IMG/VR virus record: IMGVR_UViG_2740892427_000001
Strand: one strand, 5' to 3'
DNA length: 64,000 nucleotides
From: a virus
Taxonomy: Duplodnaviria > Heunggongvirae > Uroviricota > Caudoviricetes
Under the pieces are notes generated by a model that saw only the letters and a program-made list of their open reading frames with translations, was not told the DNA's origin and searched no databases. A program made the translations under genes and the position numbers. Below, in pieces: positions 25,502 through 28,000 of this stretch (position 1 is the first letter of the stretch; the number at the start of each line of letters is the position of its first letter).

Positions 25502-25702
25502 AATCGTTTTTTCAGTAGTTATTGGCCGATGCTACGATAACTCATTAGGCATACCTTAATCTGCATTTGCCTGTTTTACTTATCCCAGTTATCCACTGGA
25601 TAGATCCAAATAAGAGATCCCAAGTAAGATCAAATAGAAGATCCAAAGAGATCCCCGATCGCCTCTAGCCGTTGCGGTTACTGGTCTGAAAGGGTGTTGC
25701 CA

Positions 25703-25804
25703 TCCACTATGGAGAGCAAAGAAACCTCTGTAGAGAGCTGAATAACCGCTATGAAGAGTAAAACAACCACTCTGGAGAGCTGTATATATCCACTGTAGAG
25801 AGTA
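25703..25804. repeat. iteron array A: 5 direct repeats, ~21-22 bp period, consensus aaCCACTnTRGAGAGc
   Basis: atccactatggagagca / aacctctgtagagagc / aaccgctatgaagagta / aaccactctggagagc / atccactgtagagagta. Confidence 0.8.
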
Positions 25805-25818
25805 GAGCACATTGTCTT

Positions 25819-25969
25819 TTATGGATAACTTAATGACTTAATTCTTCATTAACATACTGATATACATAGATATATTTTAAACTCTACTCTTAGTCATGAT
25901 TCTTATGTCCTTAAATATCCACAGAAGAGTAGAGTTACCTGTTCTTGAAATCCTCTGATTTTATCCACA
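25819..25969. promoter_or_regulatory. AT-rich segment with DnaA-box-like sites (TTATCCACA at 25961-25969; ATATCCACA at 25915-25923; TTATGGATA at 25819-25827) between iteron arrays
   Basis: exact DnaA-box consensus at 25961-25969; GATC clusters on both sides (25600-25680 and 25975-26040). Confidence 0.55.
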
Positions 25970-26081
25970 GGCCCGATCCAGTAATTCAGATCACAAAGAG
26001 AACCAAAGAGACCCATAAAGACCCAATAAGATCCCCGCCCACCTCAAACCGTTGCGCCATCTGCCTTCAGACATGATCGAT

Positions 26082-26204
26082 ATCCACTATAGAGAGCGAA
26101 TAATCCACTATAGGGAGCAAAGCAACCACTATAGAGAGGAGAAAAACCACTATAGACGGTAGGATAACCGCTGTGATGAGTGCTACTATCCACTGTAATC
26201 AGCA
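26082..26204. repeat. iteron array B: 6 direct repeats immediately upstream of repA
   Basis: atccactatagagagcg / atccactatagggagca / aaccactatagagagga / aaccactatagacggta / aaccgctgtgatgagtg / atccactgtaatcagca. Confidence 0.8.
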
Positions 26205-26243
26205 AAGGCCACCAAAGCCGTCGAATAACAAGAGACATTTGGA

Positions 26244-27299
26244 ATGAGCGAAAACGGCAATAAAAACATAGCGATCGTTGAAGCATTTTCAGAAACAGAT
26301 AAAAAGACAGGCGAAGTTGTTACGTTGGTTCCTAACACTAATAACACTGTTCAGCCTGTTGCTTTGATGCGTCTGGGCCTCTTCGTTCCGACGCTGAAAT
26401 CGACATCCAGAGGAAGAAAGGGGCAAATGGTCTCTATGGATGCCTCTGCTGAACTCAAACAGCTGTCTCTGGCAAAAGCCGAAGGGTACGAAGACATAAG
26501 GATCTCTGGCCTTCGGCTTGATATGGATAACGACTTTAAAACGTGGGTGGGAATAATCCACGCGTTTGCCAAACACAAGGTCGTTGGCGATACTGTCACG
26601 TTGCCGTTCGTTGAGTTTGTAAGGCTGTGTGGCATTCCGACCGCCAGGTCATCAGCGAAGTTACGCAAACGCCTGGACAGTTCGCTAAGCCGTATTGCCA
26701 CAAATACCATCTCGTTCCGTAGCAAAGGCTCTGATGAGTTTTACGTAACGCATCTTGTGCAAACGGCAAAATATAGTGTCAAGCACGATACGGTCGAACT
26801 GAAAGCAGATCCCAAGATTTTCGAACTCTACCAGTTCGACAAAAAGGTTCTTCTGCAACTCCGGGCTATAAACGAACTCTCAAGAAAAGAATCCGCTCAG
26901 GCGCTTTATACTTTTATTGAAAGTTTGCCGCCTGATCCGGCACCAATATCACTAGCTCGTTTACGCGCCAGACTTAATCTGACAAGTCGCACTATTACTC
27001 AGAATGCGACGGTAAGAAAGGCTATGGAACAGCTGCGAGAGATAGGATATCTCGATTACACGGAAGTTAAGCGCGGAAACTCGGTCTACTTCATCATCCA
27101 CTATAGGCGGCCAAAGTTACGCCAGGCACAAATATCAACAAAAATCGATAATGATGAGACGGAATATAGCCTCCCAGATGAGAATCAAGATGACATTATC
27201 GACGTTGTGCCTGACGAAAAAGAAGGCAAAATGGTCATGTTGAGTAAAGAAGAACTGGCGCTTCTCGAAGAGTTGCGCAAGGCAAAGACTCGCAAATAG
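26244..27299 (+). CDS. repA: plasmid-type replication initiator (iteron-binding RepA-like)
   Basis: 351-aa protein flanked on both sides by arrays of its presumptive binding sites; call rests on this RepFIB/P1-like organisation. Confidence 0.75.
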
Positions 27300-27302
27300 C
27301 CC

Positions 27303-27782
27303 AACCACTGTAGTTAGTAGTAAGGCTCACTATCCACTGTAGTGAGCCTTACTTATATCTGTAATTCGCTATCCACTATAGTGAGTATCGTTATCTGTTG
27401 ATAACCACTGTAGGCAGTAGAATGCAAATACTGAATTAAATGTTAGTGATCACTAACACTGATGAAACAAGGGCTGCGAGGTTAGTGGTCACTGGGTATC
27501 TTGGAAAATTTACTGTCTATAGTGGTTGTTGTCGCCCTCATCTTTGAGCGTATCCACTGTGGCGAGTGGATATCCACTGAAAACAGCAAAGGCTTACTCA
27601 CCATAGTGGATACCCGCTGGACATCTCACTCCAATACTCACCATAGTGGTTGTTTGATGCGAATGAAAGGCTGTCTACTCGCTACAGTGGTTAGCAGATA
27701 TGTAGGAAGAGAGGACTGCAGACCACAGTGGATAATGAGCTGATACGAATGCGGTGAGCTGGCTACTCACCGCAGTGGTTGG
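27303..27782. repeat. iteron array C: ~12 iteron copies in both orientations downstream of repA (copy-control-like)
   Basis: repeated CCACTGTAG / CTACAGTGG / CCACTATAG cores, e.g. 27332-27348, 27371-27387, 27552-27568, 27637-27653, 27766-27782. Confidence 0.75.
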
Positions 27783-27787
27783 TGCTA

Positions 27788-28000
27788 TTAGTGTATTTTC
27801 TTCAACAGGCCCCAAAGTGTTCCGGCTTTTGTAGTCAGTTTTCCTGTTTCTGGATCGTACATACGCCATTCACGCCGCTGGTGGACGATATACCCATCTT
27901 CACGTTCCAGACGCTCAAGAATGCCAGGCTGCTTGAAACCCTTAGCACGCCAGTAGCCGCTTGTTTTCTCGATTTCCAGACCTGCCAGTGTTAATGCCAT
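27788..28000 (-). CDS. hypothetical protein (70 aa)
   Basis: ORF. Confidence 0.4.
   Translation of the reverse strand: MALTLAGLEIEKTSGYWRAKGFKQPGILERLEREDGYIVHQRREWRMYDPETGKLTTKAGTLWGLLKKIH

Follow-up and report, generated by a model that had tools for sequence, protein, structure and literature searches.

The window analyzed in this study is a stretch of 64,000 nucleotides from the IMG/VR virus record IMGVR_UViG_2740892427_000001, a member of the Caudoviricetes. Between positions 25580 and 27782 it contains a single large open reading frame (ORF), repA, whose product is an initiator of 351 amino acids (aa), and this gene is surrounded by arrays of short repeats (iterons), DnaA boxes and GATC sites (Table 1). 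An earlier reading of this DNA, referred to below as the original prediction, had described the locus as a plasmid replicon of P1/RepFIB style with RepA flanked by three iteron arrays.

Table 1. Features of the replicon locus, with positions as in the 64,000-nucleotide window.
Feature	Position	Strand	Description
Core A tandem DnaA-box site	25580-25597	+	TTATCCCAG-TTATCCACT; aligns with the annotated P1 oriR DnaA site TTATCCACA-TTATCCACT
Core A, six GATC heptamer-type repeats	25600-25662	+	GATC at 25603, 25616, 25628, 25640, 25650 and 25657
Core A GC-rich spacer	25663-25699	+	GC 0.53 over 25650-25749; aligns with the P1 oriR GC-rich spacer
Iteron array A	25700-25804	+	5 direct 19-bp sites; start spacing 21/21/21/23; 17.9-28.1 bits
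AT-rich inter-core spacer	25805-25957	.	GC 27-29% (0.27-0.29 over 25800-25949)
Core B DnaA box	25961-25969	+	exact TTATCCACA; relatives read TTATACACA here
Core B, six heptamer-type repeats	25972-26037	+	GATC kept in 3 (25975, 25989, 26030); the other 3 are GAACC or GACCC
Core B GC-rich spacer	26038-26079	+	from alignments
Iteron array B	26080-26204	+	6 direct sites; start spacing 21/21/21/21/22
repA	26244-27299	+	351-aa Rep_3 (WH1+WH2) initiator
Weak iteron-like site within repA	27094-27112	+	ATCCACTATAGGCGG; 13.5-13.6 bits; codons for IIHYRR; in all close relatives
Downstream control array (incA-like)	27301-27782	both	12 iterons
Downstream iterons, plus strand	27301, 27330, 27369, 27401, 27550, 27570	+	
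Downstream iterons, minus strand	27511, 27595, 27635, 27676, 27717, 27764	-	
Hairpin, probable repA terminator	27319-27353	+	15-bp stem; -25.3 kcal/mol; z = -6.9; 20 nt past the repA stop codon
Conserved non-iteron island in downstream array	27420-27510		two GTTAGTGRTYAC motifs 39 bp apart, at 27441 and 27480

Altogether 23 RepA-type iterons were identified in the locus, and their pooled consensus is ATAACCACTGTAGAGAGTA. A 19-bp weight matrix was trained on the 11 upstream sites only and then run over the whole window; all 12 downstream sites were recovered at ≥15.3 bits (range 15-24), the best score elsewhere in the 64 kb being 12.9. The five direct iterons upstream, the six further ones before repA and the approximately twelve in both orientations after it that had been predicted were thus borne out. 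The degenerate motif AWCCACTRTRG, with at most one mismatch, had 29 matches compared with 5.95 ± 2.46 expected, a number reached by none of 100 shuffles, and 21 of the 29, including all 17 exact ones, fell within 25702-27780.

Several smaller observations concern the same repeats. About half of the iterons (e.g., those at 25786, 26080 and, on the minus strand, 27717) start with TATCCACT, which is the DnaA box TTATCCACA with one or two mismatches, and the iteron-embedded site at 27727-27735 (-) reads TTATCCACT; going by these letters, the iterons might attract DnaA as well. The conservation of the weak iteron-like site within repA may merely reflect coding. Phage SJ46, whose replicon has an unrelated iteron, also carries an intragenic iteron, at a different position (L013 2089). 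Small ORFs of 73, 80 and 44 aa that overlap the iterons are by-products of the repeats.

The predicted ORF of 351 aa was borne out, and a profile search placed its product among the Rep initiators: the Pfam models Rep3_N (WH1) and Rep3_C (WH2), PF01051 and PF21205, matched at 42.2 bits (cut-off 22.4, E 1.3e-10) and 22.8 bits (cut-off 21.1), both above the curated cut-offs. In an alignment that spans almost the entire protein, C-terminal tail included, RepA is 60% identical to the RepFIB RepA of the F plasmid (E 5e-143); its identity to P1 RepA is 49% (E 3e-93). The family named in the original prediction was therefore right, with the correction that RepFIB, not P1, provides the closer relative. 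The tail, at approximately aa 293-351, is acidic and helical and of the RepFIB type, and P1 RepA is without it. Identity reaches 91% with the RepA of SSU5 and 99.7% with those of phage Cyrano and of IncFIB-typed plasmids, and the orthologues in Cyrano and in PLSDB plasmids are annotated as RepA.

The surroundings of repA matched the annotated oriR-repA-incA map of P1 feature by feature. In that map DnaA boxes are followed by GATC heptamers, a GC-rich spacer, five phased iterons, repA and a bidirectional downstream array, and the same order is seen here. The distal of the two upstream segments (core A) shares 69% nucleotide identity with the annotated P1 oriR core, with the same feature order and the same 21/21/21/22-23 phasing of iterons; the aligned left ends read ACTTATCCACATTATCCACTGGATAGATCCAATAA in P1 and ACTTATCCCAGTTATCCACTGGATAGATCCAAATA in the window, and by alignment the core A heptamers are homologous to five annotated Dam sites of P1 oriR. 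The proximal segment (core B) occupies the position of the P1 origin and promoter. Judged by sequence, all hallmarks of the RepFIB/P1 RepA replicon family are present at the locus, i.e., a core of DnaA box(es), GATC heptamers, a GC-rich spacer and five 19-bp iterons at about 21 bp upstream of repA, which occurs twice here, and a second, downstream array in both orientations (incA or E-J repeats), here with 6 iterons per strand.

The RepA identities and the alignment of the distal core with P1 oriR both uphold the P1/RepFIB-style replicon of the original prediction. In our judgment, the segment 25580-27782 is very probably the plasmid-maintenance replicon of an SSU5-like phage-plasmid, belonging to the RepFIB/P1 RepA family and replicating in the theta mode under iteron control, and it would account for the persistence of the phage as a plasmid. 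This replicon is already known, as its repA occurs in hundreds of records and in standard typing schemes and the phage-plasmid group is well described. Several results weigh against such a reading. NCBIfam gave no match for RepA; a PDB sequence search (with phmmer and with a six-member family profile) matched no initiator structure; the hhalign comparison with F RepE was weak (E 0.012, probability 3.7%), the alignment lying at the expected WH1 helix-turn-helix region; and no convincing sigma-70 promoter for repA was found in a consensus scan, the hexamer TAGGAT having a poor -35. Membership in the family is nevertheless settled by the Pfam matches and by the 60% and 49% identities to characterised RepA proteins.

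The replicon reading of the original prediction stood, but its single origin with an AT-rich center did not. The two upstream arrays are best described as a tandem duplication of the whole origin core, with DnaA box, GATC heptamers, GC spacer and iterons; the block 25576-25806 recurs at 25948-26204 with approximately 70% identity (repeat families D8, D9 and D15, and alignment). Of the two GATC-rich clusters that had been predicted, the first (25603-25657) is indeed the densest of the window, with six sites in 58 bp, and none of 300 Markov simulations reached six per 60 bp. Its heptamers are a putative target of Dam and SeqA and, by analogy with P1, presumed to be the opening region. The second holds just three GATC. 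At least three GATC per 80 bp occur at six places in the window, and the GATC density of core B alone is unremarkable; this second cluster is, by alignment, the diverged copy of the first, in which three of the six sites were retained, and a further GATC lies nearby at 26075. The exact DnaA box of the original prediction, which belongs to core B, was confirmed, and exact TTATCCACA occurs only twice in the window, at 25961 and 19290. At the DnaA site of core A the relatives read TTATTCACA, which is compatible with TTATNCACA. The stretch between the arrays is AT-rich, as predicted, and contains a promoter-like TTAACA-16-TATATT at 25849-25876 (+).

The arrangement of 5 + 6 upstream iterons with both cores was also found in Salmonella phage SSU5, pHCM2 of S. 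Typhi, pMT1 of Y. pestis, Enterobacter pAMS-38a and E. coli p1585m1_B, at approximately 83% overall identity, and the identities of single segments given below are those between the window and these five close relatives. Core A has kept its six GATC, at unchanged distances from one another, in all five. The iterons are 84-87% identical in array A and 86-90% in array B. The heptamers of core B are the most conserved non-coding segment (94-95% to SSU5, pHCM2, pMT1 and pAMS-38a and 86% to p1585m1_B), those of core A are 75-78% identical, and the inter-core spacer, at 61-65%, is the least conserved. Because of the latter, the AT-rich spacer is unlikely to be an essential unwinding element, and it was rejected as the main one; in P1, the unwinding role belongs to the GATC heptamer region. 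The conservation of the segments among close relatives argues that both cores are functional.

The duplication is not confined to these five. When one genome per species was scanned, 80 loci were obtained, and two upstream arrays were present in 36 of 53 related loci from other Enterobacterales (RepA 62-92% identical, an ACCACTRTAG iteron core and enough upstream DNA), a count that is a lower bound, the matrix having been trained on the window. The genera concerned include Kluyvera, Buttiauxella, Yersinia, Rahnella, Franconibacter, Erwinia, Pantoea, Cedecea and Xenorhabdus. In the two-core loci a GATC cluster precedes each array, with a mean of 5.5 sites in the distal and 3.9 in the proximal one. 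A locus of Cedecea neteri (L062) has, besides its two direct upstream arrays, a third one at -1070 to -968 from repA, in which seven iterons point the opposite way. A neighbouring single-core clade is made up largely of contigs from Pantoea, many of which are hundreds of kb long, with the iteron core GTTCACTGTAA and RepA 65-68% identical. Since it is spread over so many loci and genera, the duplication is old and maintained, and not specific to phage-plasmids. Comparison of A with B across the 36 two-core loci gave no signal of ancestry or constraint, as identities were approximately 66-70% for orthologous and cross comparisons alike and hence saturated.

The possible explanation that core A (25580-25804) is an inert relic of the duplication, or of recombination between replicons, and that core B alone works, would agree with the single core directly before repA with which P1, F RepFIB, p0111-type SJ46, pSLy3-group PhiR41_1 and pKpn-group pJN2-26 manage, and also with the better conservation of the heptamers in B than in A. 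We consider it improbable. The six GATC of core A and their spacing have stayed invariant across relatives that are only about 83% identical, its iterons are much better conserved than the adjacent spacer, and a distal array following 5-6 GATC recurs in the 36 of 53 related loci, whose RepA is 67-92% identical, a spread over which binding sites would not be expected to survive in a relic. A different division of roles, in which core A is the true origin and core B now serves just as promoter/operator of repA and as a sink for RepA, is possible but doubtful. Core A retains the P1-like tandem DnaA site and all six GATC, and the left end of P1 is best matched by it (ACTTATCC..TTATCCACTGGATAGATCCAA), whereas half of the GATC sites have been lost in B and the means across the relatives likewise favor the distal cluster. 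However, core B has lost neither its exact DnaA box nor the GC spacer, its six iterons are well phased, and it still has 4-5 GATC in the Pantoea relatives. Moreover, the strong conservation of its degenerate heptamers argues for a sequence-specific role beyond that of a promoter.

Our best guess is that core B is the origin and operator, and core A a second origin or an extra site of handcuffing and sequestration. No description of the tandem core duplication was found in the searchable literature, whose reach did not extend to the 1998 pMT1 papers and a 2026 preprint. We tentatively suggest that the tandem double origin could be a conserved, functional and so far unanalysed design of one RepFIB sub-clade, with both arrays having the same RepA specificity. 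To this sub-clade belong the phage-plasmids SSU5, pHCM2, pMT1 and Cyrano together with many plasmids of Rahnella, Erwinia, Pantoea and Xenorhabdus. The distal core with its full set of GATC could then possibly be a second origin timed by Dam and SeqA, or a handcuffing partner in cis, and would add a layer of copy-number or cell-cycle control that is not found in the single-core P1 and F. The duplicated core poses in this respect a modest question on how iteron replicons tune initiation.

The promoter and operator of repA probably lie within array B. The hexamer TAGGAT at 26160-26165 aligns with the -10 of P1 PrepA and is invariant in six relatives, as is GGTAGGATAACC in the same array. The promoter is inferred only, because the -35 is poor and the scan yielded no strong promoter, its other candidates being weak or lineage-specific. 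An Rfam scan of 25400-28100 found no RNA family. Beyond repA, the second downstream iteron lies within the stem and loop of the hairpin; the relatives show no change in the stem, and a T-run is present 3' of the hairpin in SSU5, pHCM2 and pMT1. From this overlap, RepA binding and repA termination might interfere with each other at the hairpin. In the conserved island of the downstream array, the GTTAGTGRTYAC motifs resemble reversed 5' half-iterons, and the first of them in the window forms a perfect 16-bp palindrome, GTTAGTGATCACTAAC, centered on GATC. All close relatives have the two motifs, which also occur, in reversed orientation, in some loci of Erwinia and Pantoea.

Among the relatives, the number of downstream iterons is 12, 13, 14 or 15 and differs by indels of approximately 40 bp, and this variation would be expected to tune the copy number. 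In the FIB replicons of F and pO157, control and incompatibility were reported to be exerted by the downstream iterons, which were sufficient to displace a resident plasmid, whereas the upstream iterons failed to do so (PMC11983097). It is very unlikely that the downstream repeats are instead a partition centromere. The par region of P1 does follow incA directly, and here parA lies 30 kb away and no parS was identified, no search for parS having been made. However, the 12 repeats fit the matrix that was trained on the upstream iterons, and their two-orientation arrangement is that of P1 incA and of the E-J iterons of RepFIB (PMC11983097). Because they fit the weight matrix of the origin iterons they are bona fide iterons and hence RepA sites, and the centromere was rejected in favor of a copy-control array.

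The general iteron model comes from work on P1 (Chattoraj; Abeles, Brendler and Austin; Wickner). If the replicon behaves like its homologues in P1 and RepFIB, and partly following PMC11983097 and PMC10999674, it could work as follows. RepA monomers would bind the phased 19-bp iterons beside the core of DnaA box, GATC heptamers and GC spacer, and host DnaA at the outer box(es) would help to melt the heptamer region, after which the host helicase and DNA polymerase III (Pol III) would be loaded for plasmid replication in the theta mode. Methylation of the GATC sites by Dam would be needed for firing, and SeqA bound to hemimethylated sites would limit re-initiation. RepA on the iterons proximal to repA would repress its own promoter, and the 12 downstream iterons would titrate RepA and handcuff the origin iterons, resulting in a low copy number. 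ParA and the TacAT module would stabilise inheritance, and the replisome encoded by the phage would presumably serve lytic growth. A predicted enzyme elsewhere in the window touches on the methylation step: 8859-9449 (-) encodes a 197-aa phage-type Dam N6-adenine methyltransferase (PF05869, E 5.4e-38) that is 99% identical to the 'adenine methyltransferase' of Cyrano, and the element may methylate its own GATC-rich origins independently of the host Dam.

Over 2.6 kb, the region has an identity of 99.1% to Escherichia phage Cyrano (pLF82), of 99.7-99.8% to non-mobilizable plasmids of approximately 100-125 kb from E. coli, Shigella and E. albertii that are typed as IncFIB by MOB-suite, and of approximately 83% to SSU5, pHCM2 and pMT1. 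Among 5426 complete E. coli genomes, 129 gave 172 matches, all on plasmids and none chromosomal, and 459 records matched in PLSDB, of which 158 covered ≥80% of the 2601-bp query. Cyrano is pLF82 (NC_011917), for which 5.5 plasmid copies per chromosome were measured and virions were detected (PMC9928086), and the SSU5 supergroup is IncFIB by PlasmidFinder (PMC7969092; bioRxiv 10.1101/2025.09.12.675607). The features that define a phage-plasmid of this supergroup, i.e., structural, lysis and replisome genes next to rep and par genes on a replicon of approximately 100-110 kb, were all found. The window is collinear with Cyrano, the annotation of which lists tail fibre, holin, endolysin, helicase, primase, Pol III alpha, ParA and RepA and, in addition, ligase, Pol III epsilon, a gp32-like SSB, UvsY and a RecA-like protein.

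The phage-type replisome that had been predicted for the element was borne out by this annotation of a collinear record with 99% identity, and Pfam verified the two stability functions predicted elsewhere in the window, with a small ParA at 57673-58341 (-) and tacA plus a GNAT toxin at 58621-59458 (+). Such an unusually complete replisome could be taken to mean that the RepA/iteron locus is dispensable and that the plasmid state is maintained from another origin by the phage helicase, primase and Pol III alpha. This is hardly credible, as hundreds of plasmids, including the PLSDB records mentioned above, have conserved all of the sites, and the repA gene is intact; related replicons are found on ordinary plasmids and megaplasmids that are not phages; and pMT1 keeps the locus despite having lost much of the phage. 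Maintenance by the RepA/iteron replicon is the reading that we follow.

Some further features of the window lie outside the replicon. An ORF of 119 aa directly downstream of ParA (57314-57673, -) has no Pfam match and its Cyrano orthologue is labelled as a RelE/ParE toxin, but where it lies points to the centromere-binding component of type Ib partition. At 36971-37389 (+) the Rfam cspA thermoregulator (RF01766) is matched over its full length with 187.6 bits; a CspA-like ORF ending at 37364 follows, and the phage-plasmid therefore carries a cold-shock protein gene with an RNA thermosensor. Three adjacent tRNA genes found by Rfam at 48276-48519 (-) are the tRNA-Asn, tRNA-Thr and tRNA-Ser cluster annotated in Cyrano.

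Compared with known systems, the closest are Cyrano/pLF82 and the IncFIB-typed plasmids (e.g., pAMPD01, NZ_CP058309), which are the same type of element with only point differences and share the same flanks, an ASCH-domain gene upstream and a cra-like gene downstream. SSU5, pHCM2 and pMT1, with a RepA identity of 91%, have the same iteron consensus, the same 5 + 6 upstream arrays with duplicated cores and identical GATC positions. They differ from the window in having 13-15 downstream iterons instead of 12, through 40-bp indels, and in their DnaA boxes, which read TTATTCACA and TTATACACA compared with TTATCCACT and TTATCCACA here.

The pKpn and pSLy3 groups (Klebsiella phage pJN2-26 and Escherichia phage PhiR41_1) share the backbone synteny of ASCH gene, origin, repA, iterons and cra, and their origin core is 72-78% identical to core A. 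Their RepA is 45% identical in full-length alignment and 49-51% over the region aligned by tblastn. In contrast to the window, their iteron is GTATGCTGTCAGCGGT, the core is single and the downstream iterons are all in one orientation. The segments 25400-25690 and 27788-28000, which hold the ASCH gene, the DnaA-box/GATC core and the cra-like gene, are 81-88% identical to those of pSLy3-group phage-plasmids (loci L011 and L012), while the RepA/iteron cassette differs; this mosaic points to swapping of replicon specificity, with recombination having occurred in the GC spacer on one side and beyond the downstream array on the other.

P1 (oriR/incC-repA-incA, IncY) resembles the window in an origin core that can be aligned at 69-72% DNA identity, in its five iterons with 21/21/21/22 spacing, in the Dam sites between DnaA boxes and iterons and in being a phage-plasmid. 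Its incA, like the downstream array here, has iterons in both orientations, three plus-strand sites and then five minus-strand sites by the matrix, with a sixth that is annotated (L006 2170) and unscored. It differs in the iteron GATGTGTGCTGGAGGGAAA, in its one core and in parAB-parS directly beside incA. The RepFIB of F and P307 also has a DnaA box, 5 GATC and approximately five iterons upstream and bidirectional iterons downstream, but F RepFIB has a single origin core, a leader of approximately 170 nt before repA, and iterons of the ATAAGCTGTA type where the window has AACCACTRTAGAGAG.

The iterons described here are thus unrelated in specificity to those of F RepFIB and P1, and the strict mark of IncFIB, the iteron specificity of F/P307 RepFIB, is lacking, since the consensus ATAACCACTGTAGAGAGTA stands against an F core of ATAAGCTGTA. 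The label 'IncFIB' given by MOB-suite and PlasmidFinder rests on similarity of the rep gene rather than on measured incompatibility, and it is by this replicon that typing tools call SSU5-like phage-plasmids 'IncFIB', including pHCM2, pMT1 and carriers of extended-spectrum beta-lactamase genes. Because the iterons differ, true FIB incompatibility is doubtful, and it should not be concluded from the label that these elements and F-type FIB plasmids exclude each other. Cassettes for curing or displacement would best be based on the downstream iteron array, as was done for the FIB replicons of F and pO157 (PMC11983097). From the iteron sequences we predict compatibility of the element with F and P1, but incompatibility with elements of the SSU5, pHCM2 and pMT1 type, the iterons of which are the same, and SSU5-like elements probably form an incompatibility group of their own.

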